47,815 nucleotides of DNA from Thermoplasmatota archaeon. Its GTDB lineage: Archaea > Thermoplasmatota > JASEFT01. The stretch covers positions 26,037 through 73,851 of the forward strand of contig JASEFT010000002.1 of the NCBI GenBank assembly GCA_030018475.1, written 5' to 3'. Made by a program: the position numbers and the translations under genes. Below the pieces are notes generated by a model, which saw only the letters and a program-made list of their open reading frames with translations, did not search any database and was not told where the DNA came from. Below, piece after piece: positions 7,184 through 32,561 of the stretch. The stretch's first letter is position 1; each line of letters starts with the position of its first letter.

Positions 7184-7408
7184 ATGGTAACACAAAGCCC
7201 GGACGTATCAAGTCTAGCAGAAGTATTGGATAGAATACTAGACAAAGGCATCGTTGTAGACGCATGGGCAAGAATCAGTTTGGTAGGCATTGAGCTACTG
7301 ACGATAGAGGCAAGAGTTGTTGTAGCAAGTGTAGATACATTCTTGCACTATGCAGAAGAGATTACAAAGATAGAGCAAGCAGCTATCGGCGCACCTGCAA
7401 CTGCTTAG
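7184..7408 (+). CDS. gvpA: gas vesicle structural protein GvpA (copy 1)
   Basis: [69 protein letters not shown] is the canonical GvpA core. An SD-like AGGAGGCGGAGAAGGAGAA lies upstream. Confidence 0.95.
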
Positions 7409-7423
7409 ACGAAAAAATCCTTT

Positions 7424-7446
7424 TCTCCCGATTTTTTTTAGGGAGA
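7424..7446 (+). terminator. hairpin TCTCCC-(GATTTTTTTTA)-GGGAGA with T8 tract downstream of gvpA1
   Basis: The stem is 7424-7429/7441-7446 and the T8 run is 7432-7439. Oligo-T is the usual archaeal termination signal, so this suggests a partial terminator between the two gvpA copies. Confidence 0.35.
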
Positions 7447-7537
7447 CGCAAGGGGTTTAGGTAAGTAAGAAGATAAAAATAGTTGGCAGGGTAGGAGCTA
7501 TCTGGCTCCGCCCTTTGAATGGAGGTGAAGAAGAAGA

Positions 7538-7762
7538 ATGGTAACACAATCACCAGACGTATCAAGCCTCGCAGAAGTGCTCGACAGAATACTTGACAAA
7601 GGCATCGTTGTAGACGCATGGGTAAGAATCAGCTTGGTAGGCATTGAGCTACTAACGATAGAGGCAAGAGTTGTTGTAGCAAGTGTAGATACATTCTTGC
7701 ACTATGCAGAAGAGATTACAAAGATAGAGCAAGCAGCTATCGGCGCACCTGCAACTGCTTAA
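7538..7762 (+). CDS. gvpA: gas vesicle structural protein GvpA (copy 2, A28V variant)
   Basis: The 74-aa protein is identical to copy 1 except WARISL to WVRISL. The 5' third differs at synonymous sites, while the 3' ~165 nt are nearly identical to copy 1. Confidence 0.95.
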
Positions 7763-7764
7763 AC

Positions 7765-7786
7765 CTCCTCGGAGCATAAAAGGAGG
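7765..7786 (+). promoter_or_regulatory. hairpin pairing CCTCC (7765-7769) with the Shine-Dalgarno GGAGG (7782-7786) of the downstream GvpC-like gene
   Basis: The 12-nt loop lies immediately after the gvpA2 stop. It could occlude the SD of ORF 7795. Confidence 0.3.
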
Positions 7787-7794: not shown

Positions 7795-8469
7795 ATGCCG
7801 GAAACAGTAGAAGAACTAACAACGACTTATTCGCGAGCTGAACTAGACGAAATGGCAGAAGAGCTAGGCTTGGTTCCAGAAGACTACCCTAATAAAGCCG
7901 CAATAGCAAAGGCTATTATTGCAGCAAGAAAAGCCAAACCGCCTGCTGTTAAAATACCCCCGAAAGTAGGCAAGAAAGGCGTGTACGCAAAGATAAAGGC
8001 CGCAGAAAAGTTCACTGCAAAAATGGACGCAGACGTAAAGGCACAAATTGGAGAAAACGTAGAAGCAGTCAAAAAGATAGAAACTGGTATTAGGGAAGTC
8101 GGGGGAAAGATAGAAGAAAAAGTTGATGACATTCAGTCAGCTGTAGACACACAGATAAAAGAGAACCAAGCTAAGGTTGCAGAGATAGGCAAAGATATCA
8201 AAGCACAGCAAAGGGAGAACATAGCGGCAGTCAAAAAGATAGAGACTGGCATAAGTGAAGTAACAAAGGCGAACGAAGCAAAAGTCAAGCAAATCCAGGC
8301 AGACATAGGAAAGCTGGTTAAGGAAAATCTAAGCGCAGTCAAAAAGATCAGTGAAGGTATAAAAGAGCAAGCAAGAGAAAACAAAGAGGCAGTTGAAGCG
8401 TTCGAACCAAAGGTTAGGGAATTGCAGACTGCTAACAAGAAATACGTAGACGACTTCTACTATGGCTGA
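7795..8469 (+). CDS. GvpC-like repeat protein (amphipathic coiled-coil repeats; SAP/Rho-N-like N-terminal motif; C-terminal KKYVDDFYYG)
   Basis: It occupies the gvpC position of the A-C-N-O order. There are three repeats of EN(V/I/L)xAVKKI(E/S)(T/E)GI.E. The N-terminus SRAELDEMAEELGLVPEDYPNKAAIAKAIIAA resembles SAP/Rho_N helix-hairpin motifs. An SD AGGAGGT sits 7 nt upstream. Confidence 0.5.
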   Translation: MPETVEELTTTYSRAELDEMAEELGLVPEDYPNKAAIAKAIIAARKAKPPAVKIPPKVGKKGVYAKIKAAEKFTAKMDADVKAQIGENVEAVKKIETGIREVGGKIEEKVDDIQSAVDTQIKENQAKVAEIGKDIKAQQRENIAAVKKIETGISEVTKANEAKVKQIQADIGKLVKENLSAVKKISEGIKEQARENKEAVEAFEPKVRELQTANKKYVDDFYYG

Positions 8470-8768: not shown

Positions 8769-9779
8769 ATGGGATATGTAAGCATACATCAAAGGAAAGT
8801 GAGAGGTGCATCGGTTCATGACACTCTCGAAACAAAAAGAACCGAAGAGGCAATTAGGGAACAGGAAGTGGAACGCCCTAAACTTGATAGAGAAGTTGTT
8901 GAGGCGACTTATCTAACTCCAGAAGTTGAGAACTTTGTCGAAACACCCCAAGTAAAAAAGATCGAGAGCAGGATAGAACTTTGGCTCAAGATCGGCTACC
9001 CAGTTCACATAATTGGGCCGACAGGTTGCGGGAAGACAACTATAGCGATGCATGTAGCAAGTAAGTTAGGAAGACCAGTTGTGTGGCTAAATGGAGATGA
9101 ATACGTGACAACAACAGATTTTATTGGCGGCTATTCTCAAGTAGAGGTTGAAAGCTTGAGGGACAAATTTATCCATAACGTGTTCAAAAACAAGGATATA
9201 CTAAAAGCAGACTGGGTGGATAACCCACTAACACTTGCATGCAAATACGGCTATACTTTGGTTTACAACGAGTTCTCCAGGACAAGACCAGAAGCAAATA
9301 ACATCTTGTTGTCTGTTTTGGAGGAAGGCATACTAGAACTGCCGACAAAGTTCGGTGAGGAAAGATATGTGCGTGTACATCCAGATTTTAATATGATAGT
9401 GACAAGCAACTCGGTTGAGTACGCAGGTGTGCATCGCCCGCAGGATGCGCTGCTAGACAGGATGATAGGCATATATATGGACTTTTATGATTTCGATACT
9501 GAGGTAGAAATAGTCAAAGCACATACGGGTATAGCAACAAAAGAGGCGAGAAAGGTAGTAAGTGTTGTTAGGAAGCTACGGGAGAAACTAGAAGAAGCAG
9601 AGAAACCTGGTACAAGAGCAGGTATAATGATTGCATATGGGTTACAGGGGCTAGATGGCTATAACAAAGAAGATTTTGAACAGCTTTGTATTGATGCATT
9701 AGCAACGAAAGCAAAAGGGCAGAAAGATTTGGATAAAAAGATCAAATTGGTAAAAGAGGTGGTTAAAGAAATATTTTAG
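8769..9779 (+). CDS. gvpN: GvpN AAA+ ATPase (copy 1)
   Basis: Walker A IIGPTGCGKTT, Walker B hydrophobic-LVYNEF, sensor region SNSVEYAGVHRPQDALLDRM. Position is after gvpA-A-C as in haloarchaeal gvpACNO. 336 aa. Confidence 0.9.
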   Translation: MGYVSIHQRKVRGASVHDTLETKRTEEAIREQEVERPKLDREVVEATYLTPEVENFVETPQVKKIESRIELWLKIGYPVHIIGPTGCGKTTIAMHVASKLGRPVVWLNGDEYVTTTDFIGGYSQVEVESLRDKFIHNVFKNKDILKADWVDNPLTLACKYGYTLVYNEFSRTRPEANNILLSVLEEGILELPTKFGEERYVRVHPDFNMIVTSNSVEYAGVHRPQDALLDRMIGIYMDFYDFDTEVEIVKAHTGIATKEARKVVSVVRKLREKLEEAEKPGTRAGIMIAYGLQGLDGYNKEDFEQLCIDALATKAKGQKDLDKKIKLVKEVVKEIF

Positions 9780-9790: not shown

Positions 9791-10168
9791 ATGGCCGAGG
9801 AAAAAAGAGTTGAAGCTGTAATTAAGGAGGCAAAAATTAGGAAGATAGTCGATCTGTGGAGTCACAAACCAAGAGGATTGCAGTTTAATGATACAGATGC
9901 TCTGATAGTGACTGCAGAAACCGAGGCTGGAAAGATAATAAATGAAACGTTCTACTTCTGTCTAAAACCAGATGGAACGTTTAATATAGATACTGTAAGC
10001 AAGAATGGCAGCCATGTGAGGAGACAAAGACTTGCTAGTTTCCTAACACACTACAAGATCACAGACACACCAAAAAGCTACAATATAAAGGAAGGAGTAG
10101 AAAAATGGAAGGGGAAAAAGATAGAAATTGTCCCATACAAAGATGAGGGATATATCTATATTCCATAG
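9791..10168 (+). CDS. hypothetical gvp-associated protein (paralog of 21825..22421)
   Basis: The C-terminus RRQRLASFLTHYKITDTPKSYNIKEGVEKWKGKKIEIVPYKDEGYIYIP parallels RRKRLESFLKHYKITDKIEGYSIPERMKEWKKKKVKVVTYKGQDQIFIP of ORF 21825. SD AGGAGGT upstream. Confidence 0.5.
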   Translation: MAEEKRVEAVIKEAKIRKIVDLWSHKPRGLQFNDTDALIVTAETEAGKIINETFYFCLKPDGTFNIDTVSKNGSHVRRQRLASFLTHYKITDTPKSYNIKEGVEKWKGKKIEIVPYKDEGYIYIP

Positions 10169-10179: not shown

Positions 10180-10449
10180 ATGGTAACAGCAGAAATTAGT
10201 AAAATAGGAAAACAAAGCCTCTCCACAATAGGGAGTCTTTTAAACAAAAAACCTGAAAGCGTGGTAAGCGTTAGCAAAGAAGGAAAGGAATGGAAAGTCC
10301 TCGCTGAGGTATTGGAAAGAAGGGCGGTGCCTGATACGCAGGACATTCTTGGGAGATATGAGATGCGCTTGAATGAAGAAGGCGAGCTCTTGGGCTACAA
10401 GCAGGTAATGACAAGGAGGAGAGCGGATCTAATAGTAGAAGAAGAGTAG
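10180..10449 (+). CDS. gvpO: GvpO-like protein
   Basis: The 89-aa sequence VSVSKEGKEWKVLAEVLERRAVPDTQDILGRYEMRLNEEGELLGYKQVMTRRRADL fits my recollection of the GvpO family pattern (W.V..EVVER..VPDT.D.L..YE..LD..GEL.GY.R..RY.R). Position follows gvpN as in gvpACNO. SD GGAGGT upstream. Confidence 0.5.
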   Translation: MVTAEISKIGKQSLSTIGSLLNKKPESVVSVSKEGKEWKVLAEVLERRAVPDTQDILGRYEMRLNEEGELLGYKQVMTRRRADLIVEEE

Positions 10450-10613: not shown

Positions 10614-10880
10614 GTGACAAATATGCCATCAGTTAAAGAATACACAAAACGGCTTGAGAAAGCAATTAAAGAAATAGGAGCAGGTATTGAAGAAAAATCT
10701 AAAATAATAGACAAAGGAGTCAAGGAAATACAGGCAGGAATGGAAGAAACATCCAGGCGTGTAGAGAGAGGAGTCAAGGAAATACAGGCAGGGATGGATG
10801 AAACCGCTAAAAGAGTTGAAAAAGGCGTTGAGGAATTGCAAACTGATAAGAAGAAGTTTACAAAAGCGTTCTGGGGCTAG
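10614..10880 (+). CDS. short coiled-coil repeat protein with C-terminal KKFTKAFWG motif (GvpC-like/phasin-like family member)
   Basis: Repeats KGVKEIQAGMEETSRRVE / RGVKEIQAGMDETAKRVE / KGVEELQ. The track start is GTG at 10614; ATG at 10623 (MPSVKEY) is an alternative. The C-terminal motif is shared with 7795 and 26940. Confidence 0.45.
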   Translation: MTNMPSVKEYTKRLEKAIKEIGAGIEEKSKIIDKGVKEIQAGMEETSRRVERGVKEIQAGMDETAKRVEKGVEELQTDKKKFTKAFWG

Positions 10881-10893: not shown

Positions 10894-11931
10894 ATGGGGG
10901 TAATAGGAATGTATGAAAAAGATAGATATGATATAACAGGAAGAAAAACAAGAGGCGGAGTAAGATACCATAAAACCATGGAAGAAAAAGAAATGGAAAG
11001 AAGAGAAGCAGAACTCAAGGCTATGCAGCTTGAGAAAACCAGGCAAGAAATTGAGGAGCAATTTCTAACGCCTAAGGCAGAGGTATTCGTTGAAACCGAA
11101 GAAATCAAAGACCTGGAAGAAAGAGTAAAAACTTGGATCGGCCTCGGCTATCCAGTTCACATAATAGGACCAACAGGTTGCGGGAAGACTATGTTAGCAG
11201 TCCACGTAGCGAGTCAGCGTGGAAGACCAGTAGTATGGCTGAATGGTGATGAGGAGATGACAACAACACACCTTGTTGGTGGATACGGACAATACTTGGA
11301 GGAGCACTATCATGACAGATTCATTCATAATGTCTATAAAAGCAGAGAAATGGTTGAACCTGGTTGGGTAGATAATCCATTGACAATTGCATGCAAATAT
11401 GGCTATACATTAATCTATAATGAGTTTTCCAGAGCTAAACCAGAGGCAAATAATGTTTTACTTTCTGTGTTAGAGGAAAAAATACTTGAACTGCCAACAA
11501 AGTTCGGTGAGGAAAGATATATCAAAGTACATCCGGACTTTGCTGCAATACTAACCAGCAACTCAATAGAATACGCAGGGGTACACGCCCCGCAGGATGC
11601 ATTGCTAGACAGAATGATAGCTTTGCATATGGGCTATTACAGTTTCGATACCGAGGTAGAGATCGTCAAAGCCCAAACAGGCATACCTGAGAAGGAAGCA
11701 AAAAAAGTAGTAAAGGTGGTGAGAGCAATAAGAGACAAGCTTCCAGAGGCAGAGAAGCCAGGGTCGAGAGCGTGTATACAGGTTGCTCAAGGACTGCAAG
11801 CGTGGAACGGTTACAGTAAGAAAAACTTCGAAAAAGTATGCATTGATGTGCTTGGATGCAAGATGAAAGGGCTAGACGAGTTATCTAAGATGGAGAAACT
11901 GATAAAAGAAGCGCTTGACAAGCTCACATAA
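10894..11931 (+). CDS. gvpN: GvpN AAA+ ATPase (copy 2)
   Basis: Walker A IIGPTGCGKTM. Clearly paralogous to 8769..9779 over its whole length (GLGYPVHIIGPTGCGKT...PVVWLNGDE...DNPLT.ACKYGYTL.YNEFSR.KPEANN.LLSVLEE.ILELPTKFGEERY..VHPDF). 345 aa. Confidence 0.9.
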   Translation: MGVIGMYEKDRYDITGRKTRGGVRYHKTMEEKEMERREAELKAMQLEKTRQEIEEQFLTPKAEVFVETEEIKDLEERVKTWIGLGYPVHIIGPTGCGKTMLAVHVASQRGRPVVWLNGDEEMTTTHLVGGYGQYLEEHYHDRFIHNVYKSREMVEPGWVDNPLTIACKYGYTLIYNEFSRAKPEANNVLLSVLEEKILELPTKFGEERYIKVHPDFAAILTSNSIEYAGVHAPQDALLDRMIALHMGYYSFDTEVEIVKAQTGIPEKEAKKVVKVVRAIRDKLPEAEKPGSRACIQVAQGLQAWNGYSKKNFEKVCIDVLGCKMKGLDELSKMEKLIKEALDKLT

Positions 11932-11962: not shown

Positions 11963-12778
11963 GTGAAGATGAAGGACGAGGTGGAAAGACGTAAAGAGAA
12001 AAGGGAAAAGATAAGAGCAAATAAGAGAAAACAGAGAGAACTTGTAGAAGCTCATCAGGAAAAAATTAGAGAAGAAATCAAACCATACCTCACGAGAAGG
12101 AAGAGGGCGCACGATTTAAAAGTAGAGGAATTGCAAAAAGATATAAAAGAAAAAGGCAGAGTGCAAAAGGAAGAGGCTAGAGAAAAAGTAAAAAAGCAGC
12201 AGGAAAGGCAGAAAGCAAAAGTAGAGGCTCAGAAAGAGAAGATAAGACTGCAGCAGATTAAGCAAAGAGAAACTGTAGCAGCGCAAATGGAAAAACAGCA
12301 AGCAAGGCTTAAACCAATAATTGAAAGAAATAGGGAAATAGTAGAAGACAGAAAACTCACTAGTAGATTAGATGAGATAAGAAGAGGAAGATTCCTTTTT
12401 ACTTATTCAACCATGCCATCAAAAAAGTTTGCAGACTCAACAACCTATTCTCCAAAGCATTCAACAGTACCAGATCCTGAGTTTAGAGAAAAAACAACTT
12501 ACTCACCAAAGTACACAACTGTACCAGATCCAAAATTTGCAGAAAAAACAAATTTCTCGCCCAAATTCAAGACAGTACCAAAACTGGAGTTTGCGGAGAA
12601 AACAACTTATTCACCCAAGCACTCAACTGTGCCTAAGCCGGAATTTGCAGAGAAGACAACACATTCAACAGTGCCGAGCATAGATTTTGCGCACTCTACA
12701 CACTACTCGATCGTAGAGTTTGAGAGAGTAGCTGATGATAAGGTAAAAACTGAGAAAGAGCGAAAATGGATGGAATAA
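11963..12778 (+). CDS. K/E/R-rich coiled-coil protein with C-terminal 18-aa tandem repeats (TTYSPKHSTVPDPEFxEK x4-5)
   Basis: The N-terminal ~150 aa are almost entirely K/E/R/Q (charged single alpha-helix or coiled-coil type). The C-terminal repeats are TTYSPKHSTVPDPEFREK / TTYSPKYTTVPDPKFAEK / TNFSPKFKTVPKLEFAEK / TTYSPKHSTVPKPEFAEK / TTHSTVPSIDFAHS. A DNA tandem repeat lies at ~12440-12700. Confidence 0.5.
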   Translation: MKMKDEVERRKEKREKIRANKRKQRELVEAHQEKIREEIKPYLTRRKRAHDLKVEELQKDIKEKGRVQKEEAREKVKKQQERQKAKVEAQKEKIRLQQIKQRETVAAQMEKQQARLKPIIERNREIVEDRKLTSRLDEIRRGRFLFTYSTMPSKKFADSTTYSPKHSTVPDPEFREKTTYSPKYTTVPDPKFAEKTNFSPKFKTVPKLEFAEKTTYSPKHSTVPKPEFAEKTTHSTVPSIDFAHSTHYSIVEFERVADDKVKTEKERKWME

Positions 12779-12779: not shown

Positions 12780-13202
12780 ATGACAGTACTTGACCCAACA
12801 AGAGGTAAAAAGAAAGGCTCTAAAATAATGCCTGAGATGGAAAGATTGATTAGGCAGCAGGAACGCATAAAAAAGCAGACTGAAAGACTTGCAGCGCAAA
12901 AACTAAAAGGATTGCACGGGCGAGCAGAACTCACTGCTTCAAAATTGACACGTGGCGAGCTAGCGCGAAAGCTAGCGGAACAGAAAAGGCTTAATGCACA
13001 GGATAAAAGGATTCTAAAACAGTACGAGGCTGAGAGAGAAAGAGCGCTTGCTGCGAGGCTACGAGGAGAGGCAGTGACTGGGATAGATTTAACAGAAAGG
13101 GCAAAGGTTTCAAGAGAGCTTAGATGGACTGGAAAATGGAAGAGAAGAAAGGCAAAAATGGATGCCGTAGCAAGAAAATATGTGATTAAAGCAGAAAAAT
13201 AA
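12780..13202 (+). CDS. basic R/K-rich helical protein (possible GvpI-like)
   Basis: 140 aa, strongly basic (RQQERIKKQTERLAAQKLKG...). The start is 1 nt after the upstream stop. The GvpI analogy rests only on basic composition. Confidence 0.4.
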   Translation: MTVLDPTRGKKKGSKIMPEMERLIRQQERIKKQTERLAAQKLKGLHGRAELTASKLTRGELARKLAEQKRLNAQDKRILKQYEAERERALAARLRGEAVTGIDLTERAKVSRELRWTGKWKRRKAKMDAVARKYVIKAEK

Positions 13203-13380: not shown

Positions 13381-13689
13381 ATGGATCAAGCAAAATACGA
13401 ACGGATAAAGGCAGCACATTTAGCAAGAGATAGGCTGAAGAGACAAAAGAAGATAGGTCGCTCTGGGTATCTAGCTAGAAAAATTGCAGCAAGAAGAAAA
13501 TATTTCAAACAGAAAAGAAAAGCACTTGATAGAAATTTTGAGGGAAAAAAGCAAGCGAGAGTAGGTAGAGAACATGGTAAATGGAACAGGAAATCAGCTA
13601 AATGGCTGAGCAAGGGCGCAAAATGGACTGGCAAATGGGAGCATAGAGCTGCAAAATTTAGTGCTAGAATGGAAAAACTGTTTGGCTAG
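13381..13689 (+). CDS. basic K/R-rich protein with repeated KW/GKW motifs
   Basis: The 102-aa sequence ...GREHGKWNRKSAKWLSKGAKWTGKWEHRAAKF has a composition like haloarchaeal GvpI. Compositional analogy only. Confidence 0.4.
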   Translation: MDQAKYERIKAAHLARDRLKRQKKIGRSGYLARKIAARRKYFKQKRKALDRNFEGKKQARVGREHGKWNRKSAKWLSKGAKWTGKWEHRAAKFSARMEKLFG

Positions 13690-13779: not shown

Positions 13780-14175
13780 ATGGTAAATGTAAGACCTGCA
13801 AGTGAAGGCTTAAAAGAAGTTTTGGATAGGATACTAGATAAAGGAATTGTTATTGATTTGAATGCAAGAGCCTGCCTTAGCGATTTTGAGCTTTTAGGCA
13901 TAAACGCAATTGTTATTTTGAGCTCGTTCAAAACAGCTGCAAAGATCGGCATGGATTTTCCAGAGGGGACGAAAATGGATACTCCTGCATGGAAGGATTT
14001 ACTGTCAAAGCAGCCATGCCCGCTCTGCGGCAAGGAGTCGAGAACAAAAGAATTAAAAGAAGAAGGCTGCCCTTGGTGCGGCTGGAATTACAGACCTAAG
14101 TATAAAGAAGATAAGAAAACTTTCGAAAAAGAGCGAAAATATAGGTATGGGAAGGGAGGGAAATGGAGGAAATAG
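13780..14175 (+). CDS. GvpA-family (GvpJ/M-like) protein with C-terminal CxxC...CPWCGW zinc ribbon
   Basis: GvpA core [48 protein letters not shown], then CPLCGKESRTKELKEEGCPWCGWNY. Confidence 0.8.
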   Translation: MVNVRPASEGLKEVLDRILDKGIVIDLNARACLSDFELLGINAIVILSSFKTAAKIGMDFPEGTKMDTPAWKDLLSKQPCPLCGKESRTKELKEEGCPWCGWNYRPKYKEDKKTFEKERKYRYGKGGKWRK

Positions 14176-14549
14176 AAATATTAAGACCGGAAATAGAAAC
14201 TGAGGATACTGGCTTGGCAGGTGCAATTGACAGAATTCTAGATAAAGGTTTAGTGCTCAATGCAGATATTACAGTATCGGTTGCTGGTACTGAGTTATTG
14301 GGCATAAAAATAAGAGCTGCGCTCGCTAGTTTCGAAACTGCCGCAAAATATGGCTTAGAATTTCCATCTGGAACGAACATAAACACTGCAGCCTGGAAAG
14401 AGGCAACAATAGAGAAAGATACTTGTCCGCAGTGTGGTAAAAGATCATCTATAGAGGAATTGTTAAACGAGAGCTGTCCTTGGTGCGGCTGGGTATCTGC
14501 AAAGGCAAAAGTAGCAGTAAAACAAAAAGTAAAAGTGTTACAAAAGTGA
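14163..14549 (+). CDS. GvpA-family (GvpJ/M-like) protein with C-terminal CPQCG...CPWCGW zinc ribbon (paralog of preceding gene)
   Basis: LAGAIDRILDKGLVLNADITVSVAGTELLGIKIRAALASFETAAKYG, then CPQCGKRSSIEELLNESCPWCGWVS. Overlaps the upstream gene by 13 nt. Confidence 0.8.
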   Translation: MEEIEILRPEIETEDTGLAGAIDRILDKGLVLNADITVSVAGTELLGIKIRAALASFETAAKYGLEFPSGTNINTAAWKEATIEKDTCPQCGKRSSIEELLNESCPWCGWVSAKAKVAVKQKVKVLQK

Positions 14550-14556: not shown

Positions 14557-15357
14557 ATGGTTGATAACTCGTTCAAAAGGCTTGCTGAGTTCTTACCTTC
14601 AGATAAAAAAATTGCTGTTCTTAATGAGCTTTTAACTGTTTATGACGAAAGTGAGTTAGCGAAACTGCTTAAGTGCGATCCTCCTCTTATCAAGAAATGG
14701 TTGAGAAAAGCTCCGAGCAATAAATACATGCCCAAAATACTAGGGCTTGCTTTTTTCCGCTCCCCAAATATAGGTGATATACTTAAAGAAACGTTAACTG
14801 AGTTTGATTCTTTAGCTAAGTTGCTCGGCATAAAAGATGTAACTAGCAAGTTGGGCATTTTTATGAAGGAATTAGATGAAAGGAGCAGGGAAATAGTCTG
14901 GTATCTACTGAGAAACGGTCATGCAAATATTCGCGAGCTTGCAGAGATAACTAACGCAAAGACAGATAATGAAGTTCTTGTTAGGGTGAGAGAGCTTATA
15001 AACCCAAAATCAAAAGAACTCTTCGGTAAAGAAATAATGAAATTCGAAGAAGCTAAAATTAATTCTGTAACAGGTGAAAAAATTCTATTTTCATGGTGGC
15101 TGACTGAGAATATTCTACCTCTGGAGAGAGCCCCAACACTACTTGACGTATTTGATGAAAATTCTCGGATTAAAATAGTAGCAGAACTGCCGAGAGTTAA
15201 AGAAGATGATATAAAAATAGATATTGCACACCAGATCCTTACTATTTCAACTAATGGATATCAAAAAACAATCCCCCTATTTTGTAAGGTAAAGAAGATT
15301 GAAAAAACCTACAGGAATGGGATACTGGAGCTGAAGCTAGAAAAAGCTATGGAATGA
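14557..15357 (+). CDS. HTH-like N-terminal region fused to Hsp20/alpha-crystallin domain (GvpH-like)
   Basis: The C-terminus LLDVFDENSRIKIVAELPRVKEDDIKIDIAHQILTISTNGYQKTIPLFCKVKKIEKTYRNGILELKLEKA is an alpha-crystallin core. The N-terminal IVWYLLRNGHANIRELAEITNAKTDNEVLVRVRELI looks like a helix-turn-helix. Confidence 0.6.
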   Translation: MVDNSFKRLAEFLPSDKKIAVLNELLTVYDESELAKLLKCDPPLIKKWLRKAPSNKYMPKILGLAFFRSPNIGDILKETLTEFDSLAKLLGIKDVTSKLGIFMKELDERSREIVWYLLRNGHANIRELAEITNAKTDNEVLVRVRELINPKSKELFGKEIMKFEEAKINSVTGEKILFSWWLTENILPLERAPTLLDVFDENSRIKIVAELPRVKEDDIKIDIAHQILTISTNGYQKTIPLFCKVKKIEKTYRNGILELKLEKAME

Positions 15358-15366: not shown

Positions 15367-15945
15367 ATGGCAGAAGAGAAAGAAGAAGATTACAAAAAAA
15401 GAATAAAAGAGCTTGAAGCCAGAATAAAAGCGCTCGAAAAGGAAAGAGAAAAGCCTAAAGAAGAAGAGCCTAGTATTGTAGAAGGTGTTGTTTCTCAATT
15501 TATACCTGGCTTGAGCGGTATTATTAAGAGCTTAGAAAAGAGCTCCCCTGAATTTAGAAAGCGCATTGCAGAGACTGATGCCAAAATCAAGCATAGATTA
15601 GAGACTGGCTGGACAAGCAAGCCTAAAGTGGAGTATGGTGTCACTGTGCGCGAGCTTGTACCTGAGAAGAGGGAAAAAATAGAAATAAAGCCGAAGGAAG
15701 TAAAAGCTCCTACTCTCGAGCGTGAGCCAATTGTCGATGTTTTTGAAACTGAAAAATATATTTCTGTAATTGCAGAACTGCCTGGTGTTGAGGAAAGAGA
15801 AATAAAAACGAAACTTACTGAAGACGGGCTTGAAATTTCTGCGGGTAGATATAAAAAAATTATCAAGCTCCCTTCTAAGCCAAAAGCGATTGGTGAGAAA
15901 ACATACAAGCACGGCATCTTAGAGCTTAAAATAGATAAAAAATGA
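15367..15945 (+). CDS. Hsp20/alpha-crystallin-domain protein (GvpH-like)
   Basis: PIVDVFETEKYISVIAELPGVEEREIKTKLTEDGLEISAG...YKHGILELKIDKK. Coiled-coil K/E N-terminus. Confidence 0.6.
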   Translation: MAEEKEEDYKKRIKELEARIKALEKEREKPKEEEPSIVEGVVSQFIPGLSGIIKSLEKSSPEFRKRIAETDAKIKHRLETGWTSKPKVEYGVTVRELVPEKREKIEIKPKEVKAPTLEREPIVDVFETEKYISVIAELPGVEEREIKTKLTEDGLEISAGRYKKIIKLPSKPKAIGEKTYKHGILELKIDKK

Positions 15946-23567: not shown

Positions 23568-23577
23568 TTAAGCACAA

Positions 23578-24059: not shown

Positions 24060-26306
<2,247 letters not shown>

Positions 26307-26312
26307 TTATTT

Positions 26313-26612
26313 TCATTGAAAGTAATCAAGAAACGATTGAAAAAAATTATCTCTACCTAAGATATTAAGGCTTGCGGTATATTCTTCTGAAAATGCTATC
26401 TTTGATGTAAACTTATAGTCTTCTACCCTGATTTCAACTTTATTATCCAGTTGTCTAGCGACTTCGAATTTGAAGATAGAAACACTAGAGCCTGAATCTA
26501 CTAATGCAAAAAACTCTTTTTCGATACCCTTATTAATCAGTGTTACTTGGATTATTGGGAAGTGTTTTCCTCTGATAACCAGATAAGGATATTCTATCAT
26601 AAAATATACCAT
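26313..26612 (-). CDS. putative retropepsin-like aspartic protease fold protein
   Basis: 99 aa with ALVDSGSS (D-S/T-G-A/S active-site-like) in an N-terminal beta-rich region. Weak call. Confidence 0.3.
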   Translation of the reverse strand: MVYFMIEYPYLVIRGKHFPIIQVTLINKGIEKEFFALVDSGSSVSIFKFEVARQLDNKVEIRVEDYKFTSKIAFSEEYTASLNILGRDNFFQSFLDYFQ

Positions 26613-26809
26613 TCCTCATCCTTCCTCGGGACTAAAAAGGAGGCTGCTCTAATAGATGGATAGTTCTTTTTACAAACTTCCGCAGCCTTATCTAAAAGTT
26701 TATCGGATGCCAATATCCCTTCTTTCACATTTATAGCTATCCATTTTCCGGAGTGCTTTTCGATTTCTTTTCCATGTTTAGAGATCCATTCCAACTCTTC
26801 TCTACCCAT
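26597..26809 (-). CDS. hypothetical small protein, overlaps downstream partner by 16 nt
   Basis: 70 aa, MGREELEWISKHGKEIEKHSGKWIAI.... It forms a two-gene operon with 26313..26612. Confidence 0.35.
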   Translation of the reverse strand: MGREELEWISKHGKEIEKHSGKWIAINVKEGILASDKLLDKAAEVCKKNYPSIRAASFLVPRKDEEWYIL

Positions 26810-26939: not shown

Positions 26940-27326
26940 TTACCCGTAAAATTTTTTAGTATATTTCTCTTTTACTTCTTCAAGCTCTTTAATTGCTTTT
27001 TCTAAAGCTACTTTTTTATCGCTGAGCTTGGCTTGCAGTGCTTTGATCTCAGGTATGAGCTCTTCCTTTTTCTCTGGCGCTTTAGCCTTTAGCTCTCTCA
27101 TACTAGAAGTTATTTCCTGCACTTCTTTTAGCGCTTTCTCCAAAGGCTCCTTTTTCTGGATGAGCTCAACTTCCATTTCTTTAACAGCCTTCAATTTTTC
27201 TTCTACGCTCTCAATACCTGTGATTGGTTTTGTAGTAGTTTTCTCTTTAAATTCTTTGAGCGCTGCTTCAAGCTCGTCTTTTTTCTTTTTTAGCTCTTCT
27301 TCTAACTTTTCTACAGCTTCAGCCAT
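26940..27326 (-). CDS. coiled-coil protein with C-terminal KEKYTKKFYG motif (same family as 7795 and 10614 C-termini)
   Basis: 128 aa, K/E/L heptad-like throughout. The C-terminus matches KK[YF]x(2,3)F[YW]G. Confidence 0.5.
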   Translation of the reverse strand: MAEAVEKLEEELKKKKDELEAALKEFKEKTTTKPITGIESVEEKLKAVKEMEVELIQKKEPLEKALKEVQEITSSMRELKAKAPEKKEELIPEIKALQAKLSDKKVALEKAIKELEEVKEKYTKKFYG

Positions 27327-27571: not shown

Positions 27572-29533
27572 TCAGTCATATAATCCAGCTCCATACATAA
27601 CCTGAGCAAATTCTAGAAGCCCATCTACAGACCTAACCTCGTGTGGAAACAGAGGCATTTCAGTTATTGTAAAATTTGAAAATTTATTGTAGATATCTTT
27701 GACATAATCTAGCTCTCTTTCTGCTCGTGAGGCACAGAAACTGCAGCTGCTAAGGGGTGTGACTTTATTAATAACGATCTTATGCACAGGTATCTCAAGC
27801 TCCCGAAGCCTTTTAACTACGCGCTCTGTTTCAACAATACCCAGCTTCTCAGGAACTGTAACAACAACAAACTCAGTTCTACTCTCATCTTTTAAGAGAG
27901 AGATTAGGTTTTTAACAAGTTTCTTCTTGGTGAGCACGAGTTTCATACAATTGTAAAGAGAAACTATTTTTCGGTATTTCATCATGGTTTTGATAAGAGC
28001 GCTGAGCCAGTCCATAACTATCGCTGGAAGCTCGAGTAACTTTAACAAATGCCCGGAAGGAGCTGTATCTAAGATGAAAATATCGTATCTGCCTTCTTCA
28101 ATGAAGTCCATAATTTTAGTCAGGGCCATAAGCTCGTCTAAACCAGGTGGCGAGAGCTCTAGAGTTCTATCGAACATTTTTCTATCAAATGGCAAGTCTA
28201 TACCTGCACCACCAGTGATGAACCCTTCGAATATTTCGTCGATCTCTTTCTTATATGTTTGCTTAAATTCGTTTAATGCCTCGTCTGCATCCATTGCTAC
28301 AGCATACAGGTTTTCCTTTATCTGCAGCGGCTCTGTACCTATCAGCAAATCAAAACTCCTGCCTAGTGCCTGTGCTGGGTCGGTAGAAAAAATCAATATT
28401 TTCTTGTCAGGCAGCATTTTAGCAAGCTGTAGCGCGGTTGCAGCTGCTACGGTTGTTTTCCCTAACCCTCCTTTACCACCAAAGAGGTATAACTTGCGAG
28501 TACCATCAAACTTAATTTTCGGTCCGGGGGTTGGTGATATTTGTTCAGGTCCGTATCTCTTGATTAACTCATACTTGTATGATTTTCCAGAAAGAACTTC
28601 GCCGAACTTCTCGAGATTGCTTAACCCTTTAACTTCGTATGGTAACAAAGGGCTTTCGAGAATGTTGTGATTCGGGAATAAATTCTTGAGCTGCTCAATA
28701 TATTTTTTCTGCTTTTCAGCTCTAGATCTGCAAAAATCACATTCAGTAGATTGGTTAACTAGATTAACGATGATATTCTTTACGTTAATTTTATTCTTCT
28801 CGATGGTCTCGAGAAGTAATTTAGTCTCCTCCACACCCATTGATTCAGGTATTGTTACAGGCACAAATTCTGTCTTTCTAGGATCTGAGAAAAACGCTCT
28901 TATATTTTTCACATCTCTTATTTGCTGCTCTAAAAACCAATCCATTTCATCTTTTGGTAACTTTTTCCGTGCAAAGGTAGATCTTATATATCTGTGTTTA
29001 GCTTGCATTATACCTAAAATCTCAGCAAAGTCTTCTAACAGTTTGGGTAGGGAGAAGAAGCGCATCAAATGCCCTGTCGCTGCGGTATCTATTATGAAGA
29101 CATCGTAGGTATTCTCTTCTTTCATAAAATCTATGAGTTTCCGTACAGCCATGAGCTCGTCCATGCCTGGTATCGAAAGCTCGAAAAATCTTTCTAGATC
29201 TTGTGTATCGAGATAAGTGCCCCTATCTACTATGGTTTTAATGTATAGCTCGTTTTTTTTCTTGTATTCCCTTACAAGTTCTTCGGTATTTACTTCTAAA
29301 CCCCAGAGATTTTCATTAAGTTTAGTAATACTGCCACCGATCGTGCATTCGAATATATCTGAGAGTGAATGGGCAGGGTTTATCGAGACAAGCAAGGTTT
29401 TTCGGGCTTGTTTTGCTGTCAGTAGCGCTACCGCTGCAGCACATGTAGTTTTACCTACGCCACCTTTCCCGCCAAAAAATATGAGCTTTAAGTCTTTATC
29501 GCATAAAAAACTAGGTAATTCTTTAGTAATCAT
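27572..29533 (-). CDS. ArsA/GET3-family tandem (duplicated) P-loop ATPase
   Basis: Two halves each have GGKGGVGKTT/GGKGGLGKTT P-loops and DTAATGHLMRF / DTAPSGHLLKL switch-II signatures, plus CxxC pairs (ECDFC, SCSFC). 653 aa. Confidence 0.9.
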   Translation of the reverse strand: MITKELPSFLCDKDLKLIFFGGKGGVGKTTCAAAVALLTAKQARKTLLVSINPAHSLSDIFECTIGGSITKLNENLWGLEVNTEELVREYKKKNELYIKTIVDRGTYLDTQDLERFFELSIPGMDELMAVRKLIDFMKEENTYDVFIIDTAATGHLMRFFSLPKLLEDFAEILGIMQAKHRYIRSTFARKKLPKDEMDWFLEQQIRDVKNIRAFFSDPRKTEFVPVTIPESMGVEETKLLLETIEKNKINVKNIIVNLVNQSTECDFCRSRAEKQKKYIEQLKNLFPNHNILESPLLPYEVKGLSNLEKFGEVLSGKSYKYELIKRYGPEQISPTPGPKIKFDGTRKLYLFGGKGGLGKTTVAAATALQLAKMLPDKKILIFSTDPAQALGRSFDLLIGTEPLQIKENLYAVAMDADEALNEFKQTYKKEIDEIFEGFITGGAGIDLPFDRKMFDRTLELSPPGLDELMALTKIMDFIEEGRYDIFILDTAPSGHLLKLLELPAIVMDWLSALIKTMMKYRKIVSLYNCMKLVLTKKKLVKNLISLLKDESRTEFVVVTVPEKLGIVETERVVKRLRELEIPVHKIVINKVTPLSSCSFCASRAERELDYVKDIYNKFSNFTITEMPLFPHEVRSVDGLLEFAQVMYGAGLYD

Positions 29534-29567
29534 TTAGTGTGATTCCCCTTTCTCTTCACTGCTTTTC

Positions 29568-29852
29568 TCATCCTAAAATATCCATTCTTTTATTAAGATT
29601 CATACTGTTTACGCGGTTGGCTATTTTTAAGTTATGATTGAGCACATTGTTCCTTCTCTCATACTCTTCTTTAGAAATCTCGCCAAACTCATATAGGAGC
29701 CTGTTTTCTTTTAGCTGGTCGTTAATCTTATCAGGATTGTACACTTCTTGCAGTGTATGGTCTCTTATCTGCTCTACCAGCCAGATCATATCAAACGGTG
29801 GTATTGATATTCCGAGCATACGCAGAAATGCATCGTCTACAAAAAACGGCAT
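29568..29852 (-). CDS. gvpG: gas vesicle protein GvpG-like
   Basis: MPFFVDDAFLRMLGISIPPFDMIWLVEQIRDHTLQEVYNPDKINDQLKENRLLYEFGEISKEEYERR matches the GvpG pattern (L..L...A.E.YD...I...L.EL...YE.GEISEEEY...E..L). Confidence 0.6.
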   Translation of the reverse strand: MPFFVDDAFLRMLGISIPPFDMIWLVEQIRDHTLQEVYNPDKINDQLKENRLLYEFGEISKEEYERRNNVLNHNLKIANRVNSMNLNKRMDILG

Positions 29853-29860
29853 TTTTTAGT

Positions 29861-30262
29861 TCACCTCCTTATCCTATATCTTGGTTTTTTACCTTTTTTA
29901 GTCCCTTTCTTTTTTAATTGCAGGGCGCGATCAAACTCATCTATAATTTCGGACCTTCTTCTCTCATATTTTTCTTTTGTTATTTTACCAGATTCGTAAA
30001 GTGTCTTAATTTCTTTAAGAGGCTTTTCTAAAGACTTAGTAATTTCAAGTCTTTTCGAGAGCTCAGAGTTTATTTTCTCATAATCTTCTTTAGTTATCTC
30101 CTCTGCCTCATAAAGCAACTTGTTTTCTTCAAGCGCAGCTTTGATTTTTTCAGGATCGTAAACTTCTAAATAAGCAAGATCTCGTATTTTTTTAAGTATT
30201 TGAGTAGAGAGCTCGGTAGTAGGTTCGATAAGAAGCTTGTATGCTAGATATGAGAAGACCAT
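29861..30262 (-). CDS. GvpG-like protein (second copy, with duplicated YE-GxITKExYE motif)
   Basis: LAYLEVYDPEKIKAALEENKLLYEAEEITKEDYEKINSEL and LYESGKITKEKYERRRSEI. Confidence 0.5.
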   Translation of the reverse strand: MVFSYLAYKLLIEPTTELSTQILKKIRDLAYLEVYDPEKIKAALEENKLLYEAEEITKEDYEKINSELSKRLEITKSLEKPLKEIKTLYESGKITKEKYERRRSEIIDEFDRALQLKKKGTKKGKKPRYRIRR

Positions 30263-31753
30263 TTAGCTCACCTCTTTTCTTCCGACTTCTATACCTTTTG
30301 CACCGATCTTGACGCATACAAAACTATAGGGCGGCCAGGGCCCGGAATATTTAAGTATCAGATCCTTATATCTTTCGCTTAGTTGCCCAATTTCTTTAGA
30401 GAAGTCTTTTATTTTATGCTTGGGGACTAGGTAAGAGGCGTTTAGAATCAGCCTATCGCTAAACAATCTGCCTCTGACCGCTTCCGCAGCTTTTTTAGTG
30501 AGTGTATTGAAAATTTTTTCTCCCTCATTCTTAAGCTTTATCTTCTTCTTATCATCTAAAGATTTCACGGCCTGCTTAGGCACGATAGCTTTTACGCCCA
30601 GTTCGACTTTGTTATCTATCAATTTTGTACATTCTTTTAGAGCCTTATAGGCTTTTTTTATTAACACCCTTAGGATTTTCGGATTCTTGAAAACCTGTCC
30701 AAACGCAGCAGGAACTATAGAATACTTTTCTAACACTTTTCTTACAACTCCTTCGTGCGTTCTGGAATATTCTTCGGTCACAGAATAGTCTTTCACAGGC
30801 GTATCGCTAACAACTGCTGCTAAATCTTTGTAATTAATTGTATAGACCCTGCTTCCATCGCCTATTCCAATATTTCCAAACCTTATTTCTTTTTCAGGTG
30901 CAGGTATTATGCCGTAGAGATATTTACCTTCCGGGACTTTTAGTTTGAGTTTTCTTTCAGCTTCTGATTTAGCATAGCTTGCGAGCTCTACAGCTTTTGG
31001 TATTAGTTTGATAGTTTTATCATATTTTGCAGCACTAAATACTTTCTTTATTTCAGCGAACGATTTCTCCACTTCTTGCATTATCTCAGGAACATATTTT
31101 AGCGCTTTTGCTTCCCTAGCTTCTTCAACTGCTTTTCTCAGACTTGTCAATGCATTCTTTGCCTTTTTCCTCTTTTCTTCTACTTTCTTCTTCCGTACCT
31201 CTTCCAGTTTAAGCTTCCTTTCTTCTTCAAGCCTTCTTTCTTCCTCTAATTTCTTCTTCCGCTCAGCTTCTCTCTTCTTTCTCGCTCTTTCAAGTTTTTT
31301 CTTCCTTTCTTCCTCAAGTAATCTTTTCTCCTCTAATTTTTTTCTAAGCTCAGCTTCGCGCCTCTTTCTCTCGGCTTCCTTCCTTCTCTCCTCCACTTCC
31401 AAAACCCTGCGGTATGCAGAATTGAGCTCTTTTAACTGCCTAAAATGCTCTGCAAGAATACAAAGCCAAGAGCCCTCTTGGCCTTTAACCAAAAAAGGTC
31501 TATAGCCTGGAAAAGAGCCTCTACCGATAATCTTTACACTCTCAAGAGTTTTGCCAGCGAGTTCAGGTAAAGACTTGCACAGCTTGTTTATTTTGCTCAG
31601 TTTATCAAAATCTTCAGTTCTAATATAGAGATAGAGACCTCTCTGTCCACTTACTGAAAAAGGTTCTTCTCCACTTCTCTTACCAATAATTTCAAGCTTT
31701 TCAAGAGGCTTTAATTTTATCCTAGCCATTCCCTCACCAGTTGCTTTACTCAA
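30263..31753 (-). CDS. GvpF/L-family protein with N-terminal tandem novel domain and E/R/K-rich coiled-coil linker
   Basis: The C-terminal 250 aa are GvpF/L (YLYGIIPAPEKEIRFGNIGIGDGSRVYTINYKDLAAVVSD...YSGPWPPYSF). The N-terminal 115 aa are the duplicated domain shared with ORF 23578. The middle ~90 aa are an ERK repeat. Confidence 0.7.
   Translation of the reverse strand: MSKATGEGMARIKLKPLEKLEIIGKRSGEEPFSVSGQRGLYLYIRTEDFDKLSKINKLCKSLPELAGKTLESVKIIGRGSFPGYRPFLVKGQEGSWLCILAEHFRQLKELNSAYRRVLEVEERRKEAERKRREAELRKKLEEKRLLEEERKKKLERARKKREAERKKKLEEERRLEEERKLKLEEVRKKKVEEKRKKAKNALTSLRKAVEEAREAKALKYVPEIMQEVEKSFAEIKKVFSAAKYDKTIKLIPKAVELASYAKSEAERKLKLKVPEGKYLYGIIPAPEKEIRFGNIGIGDGSRVYTINYKDLAAVVSDTPVKDYSVTEEYSRTHEGVVRKVLEKYSIVPAAFGQVFKNPKILRVLIKKAYKALKECTKLIDNKVELGVKAIVPKQAVKSLDDKKKIKLKNEGEKIFNTLTKKAAEAVRGRLFSDRLILNASYLVPKHKIKDFSKEIGQLSERYKDLILKYSGPWPPYSFVCVKIGAKGIEVGRKEVS
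31195..31400. repeat. ~105-bp imperfect tandem duplication within the E/R/K linker-coding region of ORF 30263..31753
   Basis: Two consecutive ~35-codon units encode LEEKRLLEEERKKKLERARKKREAERKKK and LEEERRLEEERKLKLEEVRKKKVEEKRKK. Confidence 0.4.
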
Positions 31754-32561
31754 CTGTCTTTCTATTCAGCTCTACAGACTGCAAAAACTTACTCAAAAAC
31801 TTGCTGGCTTGCACATGCTCGTTAAGTATACCTCTTATTTTAGGCTCTGCACCTTTTGGAGGTTTGTAGAGCTTTGTTTTAACTTTATACTCGCATTTCA
31901 GCAAGCCTTTTTCTTCTAGCGAATGGAGCAGGGGATAAATTGTGCCAGGGCTTAGCAAGATGTTAAATTCTTTATGCACAGTCTTTATTATATCTGTACC
32001 GCACATAGGCTTGTTAAGTATTAATGCTAGGACGATAGTCTCAAGCTCGTTTTTAACAAATCTCTCTATAAACTCGTCTGAGATATTTGACTTGTCAAGC
32101 GTTTCCGAAGAAAGAACAGTGATATCGCTAGCTGTAAGCATGAGTTTGTCATGGCATTCCACTAACTCTTTTATAATCTTAGGGTCGAGCTTAGAGGCGT
32201 CATAGGTGCATAACATAAGCTGGTTTTTGCCTGCTCTCGCAAGACTCTTCTCTATTTTCAAATGCTCCTCTTTATCTATGGAGCCTGCATCTACGAGAAT
32301 TCTCAGTTTGTCGTTAAAGTTAATTCTACCAAGCCCACTAGGCTTGATAATAGAAATATCGAAATTCAATCCTTTAAGCTCTTGAGATACTGCATCAGGT
32401 TCGTCATTAGTTATATAAACTACCTTTTCATCTTTAGCTGCAGAGCCTATGAAAGGCGCATGAATTGCATATTTGTTCACATCAGGTGTATACAAATGCA
32501 AAGTATGCTTTGCTATAGCAGAAAGAATTGTATTTATCGCCGATATTTTGCCTTCTTCCAT
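31746..32561 (-). CDS. KaiC-like (P-loop-degenerate) domain fused to C-terminal PadR-type winged helix; candidate gvp regulator (paralog of 5895..6911)
   Basis: C-terminus NELETIVLALILNKPMCGTDIIKTVHKEFNILLSPGTIYPLLHSLEEKGLLKCEYK. The N-domain has RecA-like strand/helix alternation without GK[ST]. Confidence 0.55.
   Translation of the reverse strand: MEEGKISAINTILSAIAKHTLHLYTPDVNKYAIHAPFIGSAAKDEKVVYITNDEPDAVSQELKGLNFDISIIKPSGLGRINFNDKLRILVDAGSIDKEEHLKIEKSLARAGKNQLMLCTYDASKLDPKIIKELVECHDKLMLTASDITVLSSETLDKSNISDEFIERFVKNELETIVLALILNKPMCGTDIIKTVHKEFNILLSPGTIYPLLHSLEEKGLLKCEYKVKTKLYKPPKGAEPKIRGILNEHVQASKFLSKFLQSVELNRKTVE

Follow-up and report, generated by a model that had tools for sequence, protein, structure and literature searches.

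The model gas-vesicle (gvp) gene clusters, those of Halobacterium (p-vac, gvpACNO/DEFGHIJKLM), Anabaena, Bacillus/Priestia megaterium (pNL29) and Serratia 39006, encode GvpA, GvpN, GvpF/L, GvpG, GvpJ/M, GvpK and GvpO together with a repeat protein after gvpA, and to our knowledge Hsp70, CDC48, a Get3/ArsA ATPase and a GvpF/L with a J domain are all absent from their gene lists. Here we analyse a gvp island, recognised from its genes alone, that occupies positions 7184-32561 of a 47,815-nucleotide stretch of DNA (the window) from a metagenome-assembled genome (MAG) of a Thermoplasmatota archaeon. The island shares the core genes of the model clusters and the repeat protein after gvpA; its regulators are of MEDS-PadR types and not GvpD/E; and interleaved with its core genes are an Hsp70, a GvpF/L protein fused to a J domain, a CDC48 unfoldase, a tandem Get3/ArsA-type ATPase and Hsp20-domain proteins.

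Part of this combination has a precedent. Two-domain ArsA homologues and Hsp20 were described in the gvp clusters of Polaribacter, Pelodictyon, Anabaena/Nostoc and an acidobacterium, where they were proposed to energise a biogenic step and where ArsA was proposed to co-evolve with gvp genes (Castillo & Saier, 2010; PMC2963123), so the first-pass annotation of the window erred in stating that no known gvp cluster carries an ArsA/GET3-type ATPase. Those clusters resemble the present island in having a tandem ArsA-family ATPase and Hsp20 within the gvp cluster and no ars genes nearby; they differ in that no CDC48, Hsp70, J-domain GvpF/L or archaeal example was reported, and the window ATPase is nearer to Get3/TRC40/ArsA1 than to the arsenite pump, with the Get3 CxxC in both halves. 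Among 8 million full texts we found no paper linking gas vesicles to a J domain, a cluster-encoded Hsp70/DnaK or CDC48, with the proviso that surveys of bacterial J proteins could still list the architecture. The novelty claimed in the first pass thus falls for ArsA and Hsp20, published in 2010, and stands within the literature searched for CDC48, Hsp70 and J-domain GvpF/L; gvp clusters with their own protein-handling machinery form a large class that this literature does not describe.

We consider it probable, at roughly 70%, that these genes encode a client-specific chaperone machine acting on Gvp proteins. Scans with Pfam and NCBIfam bear out both the gvp gene complement and the embedded chaperone genes that had been read from the translations, and every core accessory gene (GvpN, GvpF/L, GvpG, GvpJ/M, GvpK, GvpO) matches its model above cut-off. 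The core genes and the candidate machine are as follows.

7184-7408 and 7538-7762, plus strand: two copies of gvpA, major shell protein (PF00741, 63 and 65 bits)
8769-9779, plus strand: GvpN1, AAA+ ATPase (TIGR02640, 361 bits, cut-off 267)
10180-10449, plus strand: GvpO (PF05800, 74.5 bits)
10894-11931, plus strand: GvpN2 (AAA_5; 61% identical to GvpN1 by blastp)
13780-14175 and 14163-14549, plus strand: two GvpJ-like proteins (PF00741)
14557-15357, plus strand: helix-turn-helix (HTH) plus probable Hsp20 alpha-crystallin-domain protein (NCBIfam archaeal Hsp20, E 5e-16; homologues in 59 loci)
15367-15945, plus strand: probable small heat-shock protein (sHsp), Hsp20 family (NCBIfam archaeal Hsp20, E 2e-17; homologues in 55 loci)
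16028-16348, plus strand: GvpK (PF05121, 76.5 bits)
16332-17171, probable ATG start 16341, plus strand: GvpF/L paralogue 1 (PF06386, 231 bits)
17120-18160 as a long open reading frame (ORF; 346 residues), likely 17168-18160, plus strand: GvpF/L with a C-terminal J domain (PF06386 and PF00226)
18157-20064, plus strand: Hsp70 (PF00012, 617 bits), its start overlapping the stop of the J fusion
22578-23156, plus strand: GvpM-like protein fused to a PH/GLUE-like domain (NF046091 GvpM, E 2e-27; PF00741 and bPH_3)
24060-26282, minus strand: CDC48/VAT-type double-ring AAA+ unfoldase (TIGR01243, 1066 bits, cut-off 803)
27572-29533, minus strand: tandem (pseudo-dimeric) Get3/TRC40/ArsA-family ATPase (PF02374 twice; TIGR00345, 454 bits, cut-off 135)
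29568-29852 and 29861-30262, minus strand: two GvpG proteins, the second with SHOCT (PF05120)
30263-31753, minus strand: long GvpF/L with a duplicated small N-terminal domain and a coiled coil (PF06386, 138 bits)

On the plus strand the order is gvpA twice, a coiled-coil repeat protein, gvpN, an unassigned ORF, gvpO, a small coiled-coil protein, gvpN2, three K/R/E-rich ORFs, two GvpJ-like genes, two Hsp20-domain genes, gvpK, GvpF/L, GvpF/L-J, Hsp70, five unassigned ORFs and the GvpM-PH fusion; on the minus strand it is a MEDS-PadR regulator, the long GvpF/L, gvpG twice, the tandem ArsA/Get3 gene, a coiled-coil protein, two small ORFs, CDC48 and two further small ORFs, and the two operons converge at 23156/23247. 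The operon structure that the first-pass annotation had deduced from overlapping start and stop codons can be read directly at three points: TTGA at 17168-17171 (GvpF/L stop, GvpF/L-J start), GTGA at 18157-18160 (GvpF/L-J stop, Hsp70 start) and ATGA at 20061-20064 (Hsp70 stop, start of the next ORF). Hsp70 is in this way translationally coupled to the fusion gene.

The fusion protein probably starts at TTG 17168, which agrees with the 330-residue NCBI gene model and with the low confidence (predicted local distance difference test, pLDDT, <50) of residues 1-16 of the long ORF. Its J domain scores 54.5 bits against PF00226 (cut-off 27.8), and the HPD motif stands at residues 293-295 of the 346-residue ORF, with H293 and D295 invariant and P294 present in at least 90% of a 21-sequence alignment. 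In an AlphaFold model computed from that alignment (pLDDT 86.9), the HPD lies between helices 278-292 and 301-321; in Foldseek comparisons residues 17-258 match the cyanobacterial GvpF crystal structures 6L5D and 4QSG (template-modelling score 0.78-0.83 on target), and J domains, among them the DnaK-bound 5NRO_B, match the C-terminal part. The J domain and its HPD place the predicted protein among the class C (type III) J-domain proteins. Judged by sequence similarity the family is real and large: with a threshold of E<=1e-30, 242 proteins among 1.84 billion cluster representatives (50% identity) are related to the fusion, the alignment extends through the J domain in about 126 of the 150 best, and some 28 database clusters carry both Pfam domains. 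The architecture is like that of HscA-HscB in Fe-S cluster assembly and of Mycoplasma TopJ, in which a J domain is joined to a client module and an adjacent or recruited Hsp70 serves one assembly pathway; the HscA and TopJ models give partial matches to island proteins, but homology is limited to the J domain and the Hsp70 core, the client module of the island protein having the GvpF/L fold.

We used an alignment of 21 fusions as bait in a scan of one genome per GTDB species, which returned 418 related loci, of which the best 80 were fetched; presence or absence of genes was called by tblastn of the window proteins, and the co-occurrence counts rest on 41 loci whose flanks extend 5 kb or more on each side. 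The fusion occurs in 85 non-redundant loci, all 85 with an intact HPD, from about five archaeal and more than 20 bacterial phylum-level groups. The archaeal hosts are Bathyarchaeia, Thermoplasmatales, Methanomicrobia, 'Halobacteria', Micrarchaeota and Nitrosotalea; the bacterial hosts are Pirellulales, Desulfobacteraceae, Syntrophales, Dehalococcoidia, Nitrospirota, Omnitrophota, Actinomycetota, KSB1, Latescibacter, Cloacimonetes, Aerophobetes, Zixiibacteriota, Verrucomicrobiota and others. Contig look-ups of distant fusion members led to a gvp cluster every time; a look-up with the window fusion itself returned no contig. Given the fusion, CDC48 is present in 32 of the 41 well-flanked loci, ArsA in 28, Hsp20 in 37 and Hsp70 in 15, and at least one of the three ATPases (CDC48, ArsA, Hsp70) in all 41. 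Of the 57 loci that have a CDC48 match, 44 have this gene 5' of the fusion, in the same orientation and no more than 600 bp away; Hsp70 stands directly 3' of the fusion in 14/14 archaeal loci and at the far end of the cluster in eight bacterial ones.

Individual loci (numbered L001 onward) illustrate the arrangement in both domains. A bacterium with sigma-54 regulators (L001) and a 'Patescibacteria group' MAG (L008) both have Hsp20-ArsA-CDC48-GvpF/L-J, and a Ktedonobacteraceae MAG (L003) has Hsp20-CDC48-GvpF/L-J...ArsA; the archaeal L005 has ArsA twice followed by GvpF/L-J-Hsp70, and L006 has GvpF/L-J-Hsp70-GvpM...CDC48...Hsp20. The order in Bathyarchaeia, gvpA-(coiled coil)-N-x-O-x-MEDS/PadR-GvpF/L long-G-J-J-Hsp20-K-F-F/J-Hsp70-M, is close to that of the plus-strand operon of the window, and the minus-strand block of regulator, long GvpF/L, GvpG and ArsA recurs in L010, L011, L016 and L018. 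The chaperone genes are thus tied to gvp genes in archaeal and bacterial lineages alike and are not unlinked housekeeping copies, and the cluster that had been taken for an unusual one is a single member of a large and widespread class.

The cluster Hsp70 has both nucleotide- and substrate-binding domains and conserves D8, K70, E171, D194, T199, D201, R167 and the linker residues L391/D393; against DnaK models it scores 705 bits with NF001413 (cut-off 648) and 700 bits with TIGR02350 (cut-off 822). In neighbour-joining trees the archaeal gvp-linked Hsp70s, from five phyla, form one long-branched clade apart from the housekeeping DnaK of Bathyarchaeia, Asgard archaea and Methanobacteriales, and the bacterial gvp-linked Hsp70s form another. 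Members of the archaeal clade keep all catalytic residues, R167 and the interdomain linker, and have in common a deletion of the surface loop 'AD-SGPKH', frequent changes in the substrate arch (Ser for M404 in 13/22, Met for V436 in 17/22, E. coli numbering) and a C-terminal ..L-E-V/I-D-Y-K tail (L005-L019, L045). These arch changes, the loop deletion and the common tail hint at an altered client specificity. The neighbourhoods of its nearest homologues led us to reject the idea that this Hsp70 is a housekeeping copy; among the scanned window ORFs there is no full-length DnaJ, and the gene does not stand in a dnaK-dnaJ-grpE operon. ORF 20061-20438, which overlaps the Hsp70 stop, was considered as a nucleotide-exchange factor and rejected, having no family match and no relatives in other loci.

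The island CDC48 comprises CDC48_N, CDC48_2 and two AAA domains, with the double-psi barrel and beta-clam of the N domain present; its best solved relative is Thermoplasma VAT, and like VAT it has Walker A/B motifs and aromatic pore loops in each of its rings, as do all 58 CDC48s compared. Its nearest relatives (71-80% identity) are in the gvp clusters L090 (gvpA-N-O-CDC48...ArsA twice), L091 (Methanocellales; PadR-gvpA-N-O-CDC48) and L092; since these relatives lie in gvp clusters, the housekeeping-copy idea was rejected for relatives at 71% or above as well. Relatives at 68-71% identity belong, in Archaeoglobaceae and Methanosarcinales, to three-gene HTH-CDC48-Hsp20 operons that hold no gvp genes, an arrangement known as the euryarchaeal Phr/HSR1 heat-shock regulon (PMC10653856), and CDC48 and Hsp20 travel together in gvp clusters too. 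The two contexts differ in that the heat-shock operon has a Phr-like HTH neighbour (as in L093 and L094), whereas the window CDC48 has gvp neighbours, is flanked by small unassigned ORFs and has no adjacent Phr-like HTH gene. They differ also at the C-terminus: the heat-shock-type CDC48s at L093 10001-12718 and L094 10001-12712 end in HbYX-like fashion (..KMYV, ..KTYA), whereas the window protein ends ..EEWRV and lacks an HbYX tail. A penultimate-Tyr HbYX tail is present in all six CDC48s taken as non-gvp (context verified for two of the six), against 1/6 archaeal and 0/45 bacterial gvp-linked CDC48s, and this loss argues against proteasome-coupled degradation. Because its 68-71% relatives are ordinary heat-shock-operon copies, the gvp CDC48 is, as far as sequence relationships tell, a recruited heat-shock unfoldase and not a new enzyme, and its sHsp partner was probably recruited likewise.

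The tandem ATPase falls well short of the arsenical-pump equivalog TIGR04291 (201 bits, cut-off 650); among solved structures it matches ArsA1 (5ZME) at 231 bits and Get3/ASNA1-type proteins, among them the archaeal 3ZQ6 and 3UG6, at 149-201 bits, but scores only 100 bits with E. coli ArsA, and no ars genes (arsB, arsD or arsR) are found among the window ORFs. Neither its scores nor its context are those of an arsenical-pump ArsA. The P-loops GKGGVGKT and GKGGLGKT and the switch motifs are conserved, and each half has a CxxC (CDFC, CSFC), the first aligning, as CDFCRSRAEKQKKYIEQL, with the Get3 CxxC zinc region; score, deviant P-loop and CxxC assign the predicted protein to the Get3/TRC40/ArsA superfamily. 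Get3/TRC40 and the tandem chloroplast ArsA1 are thus its closest solved relatives, with P-loops, switch motifs and CxxC zinc motif kept. It differs from the Get3/TRC40 system in that no Get1/2-like insertion partners are encoded near the island gene, and the clients of Get3/TRC40 are membrane proteins, whereas those proposed here would be hydrophobic Gvp proteins in the soluble phase.

The first-pass annotation counted four to five Hsp20 genes in the island. Only two Hsp20-type genes lie within 7184-32561 (14557-15357 and 15367-15945), with one clear (395-1165) and one weak (1169-1687) candidate further upstream; neither Pfam at E up to 5 nor phmmer against all window ORFs found any other inside the island. 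The two island proteins score 59-63 bits against the NCBIfam archaeal Hsp20 model (cut-off 140), and Pfam HSP20 gives 20.3 bits on 14557-15357 (cut-off 20.8).

How could these proteins act together? In haloarchaea, GvpF and GvpL bind GvpM, a member of the GvpA family, and GvpH is chaperone-like and prevents GvpM from aggregating (PMC6107691). By analogy, the GvpF/L domain of the fusion would bind hydrophobic GvpA-family proteins, and the J domain attached to it would trigger ATP hydrolysis by Hsp70, which would then clamp the client, so that GvpF/L-J would be a client-specific co-chaperone as HscB is for HscA. The partner Hsp70 would be the one encoded next door in archaea and, for most bacterial versions, a recruited host DnaK. 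The sHsps and the Get3-like ATPase may serve as holdases for aggregation-prone hydrophobic segments, and CDC48, bereft of its proteasome-docking tail, may be a stand-alone unfoldase that recycles misassembled or collapsed shell protein instead of feeding the proteasome. A broader proposal, which we make tentatively and rate at somewhat under even odds, is that many gvp clusters of both domains, and perhaps the majority of those found in uncultured anaerobes, specify an assembly line of their own that runs on ATP. In it GvpF/L would be an adaptor that hands shell proteins to Hsp70 by way of the fused J domain, while a CDC48 independent of the proteasome, a Get3-like holdase and sHsps would keep GvpA-family proteins assembly-competent or restore them to that state. 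Of the chaperone-rich assembly system envisaged in the first pass, the conserved linkage to gvp genes holds, uniqueness and the novelty of ArsA do not, and help in the assembly of GvpA is something that we infer.

Several points weigh against the reading of these genes as a client-specific machine for Gvp proteins. Every organism concerned is represented by a MAG or a single-amplified genome, as are all fetched scan loci, and their vesicles are predicted from genes. The J fusion was the bait, and the co-occurrence counts are consequently conditional on it; they are not a census and give no share of all gvp clusters. The cluster Hsp70 is 57% identical to the housekeeping DnaK of Methanothermobacter and 50-54% identical to the Bathyarchaeial gvp-linked Hsp70s, so the gvp-linked clade could partly reflect long branches, in trees that are neighbour-joining with few references and with E. 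coli DnaK as the sole bacterial housekeeping Hsp70. CDC48 is only slightly nearer to its gvp-linked relatives than to the heat-shock-operon copies (71-80% vs. 68-71%), and the scanned window ORFs include no GrpE nucleotide-exchange factor. Finally, the model clusters of Halobacterium, Anabaena, Bacillus and Serratia assemble vesicles without these genes, and the module therefore cannot be universally required.

An alternative is that the module acts after assembly, with CDC48 and Hsp70 dismantling, recycling or regulating vesicles, or degrading regulators as GvpD does GvpE in haloarchaea. Collapsed vesicles are very stable protein sheets whose reuse needs an energy-driven extractor, CDC48/VAT proteins are unfoldases whose two rings both bear aromatic pore loops, and the island also carries a KaiC-like ATPase and several PadR/MEDS regulators, all of which speak for such a role. 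Set against it, the J domain sits on GvpF/L, a family placed early in haloarchaeal assembly (PMC6107691), sHsps and Get3-like holdases suit the handling of proteins before assembly better, and loss of the HbYX tail speaks against proteasome-coupled degradation. We regard a mainly post-assembly role as unlikely, while recognising that it is compatible with a client-specific machine for Gvp proteins and does not exclude one.

It could also be that the chaperones are general stress or housekeeping genes that happen to lie beside gvp genes and have no specific role in vesicles. The gvp-free HTH-CDC48-Hsp20 operons of the known heat-shock regulon, an HTH gene that precedes CDC48 in L006 as it does in those operons, and an Hsp70 that exceeds the NF001413 DnaK cut-off and is 57% identical to a housekeeping DnaK are what one would expect in that case. 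Such an origin does not account for a J domain physically fused to GvpF/L with its HPD intact in 85/85 loci, nor for a CDC48 gene that adjoins the fusion in dozens of lineages of bacteria, in which N-domain CDC48 is otherwise sporadic. The Hsp70 gene overlaps gvp-cluster ORFs at both its start and its stop codon, gvp-linked Hsp70s stand apart from the housekeeping DnaK of the same phylum, and the HbYX tail is lost in gvp-linked CDC48s and kept in their non-gvp relatives. Given the fusion, an adjacency that holds across many phyla and the sequence features that set the gvp-linked copies apart, we think this explanation quite improbable.

That the island is an artefact joining a gvp cluster to an unrelated stress-gene region can be virtually dismissed: the source is a MAG contig whose convergence at 23156/23247, the sole suspicious point, could hide a false join, but GC content is even along the island (0.37-0.42), the same neighbourhoods are found again in many other assemblies, and a separate MAG (GCA_030017735.1, locus L095) matches window positions 17942-26490 at 98.6% identity with the same ORFs and gene order, starting with the J domain and continuing past Hsp70 and the GvpM fusion, over the point of convergence, into CDC48, so that the possibility of a chimera raised in the first pass is settled at the junction between both operons.

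Among the core gvp proteins, the two GvpA copies differ at one residue, and GvpA aligns end to end with the solved Anabaena GvpA 8GBS (E 2e-23) and also with the solved Bacillus GvpA 7R1C. Both GvpJ-like proteins (13780-14175 and 14163-14549) end in a four-cysteine tail, CPxCG...CPWCGW, that looks zinc-ribbon-like in the translation; we know of no such tail in model GvpJ/M proteins. The fusion of a GvpM-like N-terminus to a bacterial-PH/Vps36-GLUE-like domain is met again at L006 12904-13488 and L090 16375-17337. The other ORFs of the island and of the block upstream of it are as follows.

395-1165, plus strand: Hsp20-domain protein of 256 residues (phmmer E 2.7e-18 to 15367-15945; Pfam HSP20 20.9 bits, cut-off 20.8)
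1710-2165, 2172-2669 and 4809-5495, plus strand: DUF835 ORFs (Pfam)
3067-3297, plus strand: PadR (Pfam)
4050-4736, plus strand: KaiC-like ATPase (Pfam)
5895-6911, plus strand: MEDS-PadR transcription regulator 1 (Pfam PadR and MEDS)
7795-8469, plus strand: coiled-coil repeat protein in the GvpC position, C-terminal ..FYYG (from position and repeats)
9791-10168, plus strand: conserved archaeal gvp-cluster ORF (tblastn matches in L010-L013 and L018)
10614-10880, plus strand: small coiled-coil protein ending ..FWG (blastp ~1e-8 to 7795-8469 and 26940-27326)
11963-12778, 12780-13202 and 13381-13689, plus strand: three K/R/E-rich ORFs (no Pfam match)
20061-20438, 20460-20864, 20865-21086, 21092-21514 and 21825-22421, plus strand: five ORFs without family (no Pfam match; also in L095)
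23247-23937, minus strand: two small ORFs, including 23578-23937, which is paralogous to the N-terminus of the long GvpF/L
26313-26809, minus strand: two small ORFs (one of 99 residues without family, one DUF5678; Pfam)
26940-27326, minus strand: coiled-coil protein ending ..FYG (from translation; blastp 1e-8 to 10614-10880)
31746-32561, minus strand: MEDS-PadR regulator 2, first gene of the minus-strand operon (Pfam)

The protein at 7795-8469 had been called GvpC-like; its position and coiled-coil repeats agree with that name, but it does not match the Pfam GvpC repeats (Gas_vesicle_C) and gives only weak apolipoprotein/coiled-coil matches. Three coiled-coil ORFs of the island end in two or more aromatic residues and a Gly (FYYG, FWG, FYG). 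Such aromatic-aromatic-Gly tails are found in 9/3089 ORFs across all fetched loci, and eight of the nine lie directly 3' of gvpA in archaeal clusters (..DFYG, ..KFYG, ..DFYFG, ..DFYYG; loci with such an ORF are L006, L012, L013, L015, L017, L019, L090 and L091), and so the tail looks like the conserved C-terminus of a family-less protein that occupies the GvpC position. ORFs 9791-10168 and 21825-22421 share a C-terminal domain (42% identity), and 23578-23937 (119 residues) is 56% identical over 107 residues to residues 13-119 of the long GvpF/L at 30263-31753; both paralogue families were found only in archaeal gvp loci (L010-L013, L018). Of the K/R/E-rich ORFs, 12780-13202 has relatives in six archaeal loci; the C-terminal half of 11963-12778, a protein without a family match, holds several near-identical repeats of about 15 residues (..TTYSPKHSTVPDPEF.., ..TTYSPKYTTVPDPKF..).

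Upstream of 7184 the island extends to about 395 with Hsp20, three DUF835 ORFs, PadR, the KaiC-like ATPase and MEDS-PadR. Homologues of MEDS-PadR regulator 1 lie within 11/14 archaeal gvp loci, and a similar set (Hsp20, KaiC-like ATPase, PadR and a response regulator-DUF835 protein) adjoins gvpA/CDC48 in L092; this suggests that the 395-6911 block is a putative regulatory arm, possibly the functional counterpart of haloarchaeal GvpD/E. Just beyond the other end of the island, 34376-38104 on the minus strand encodes a 1242-residue protein that combines CARDB domains with zinc ribbons at its C-terminus and is probably a surface protein with no relation to the gvp genes.

How the very hydrophobic GvpA stays soluble and enters the growing vesicle is an open question, and the roles of GvpF/L and the accessory proteins have been guessed. 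A GvpF/L-J fusion whose HPD is kept in 85 loci of both domains strongly hints, on genetic grounds, that GvpF/L serves as a client adaptor. If gvp clusters do encode the assembly line proposed above, vesicle biogenesis would be chaperone-directed, comparable to the handling of Fe-S clusters or clathrin by dedicated Hsp70/J pairs, and the failure of most gvp clusters in heterologous hosts would be explained. In a screen for ultrasound reporters, only 5 of 15 native gvp clusters gave vesicles in E. coli, the choice having deliberately avoided those that carry non-gvp genes (PMC10344784), yet for engineering those very genes may supply the help that is lacking. Extra Hsp70 copies in Thermoplasmatota were noted in a 2026 survey of archaeal Hsp70 systems, with function unassigned and vesicles unmentioned (PMC12874294); a client-specific chaperone machine for Gvp proteins would give a role to these copies and to the scattered CDC48 homologues of bacteria.

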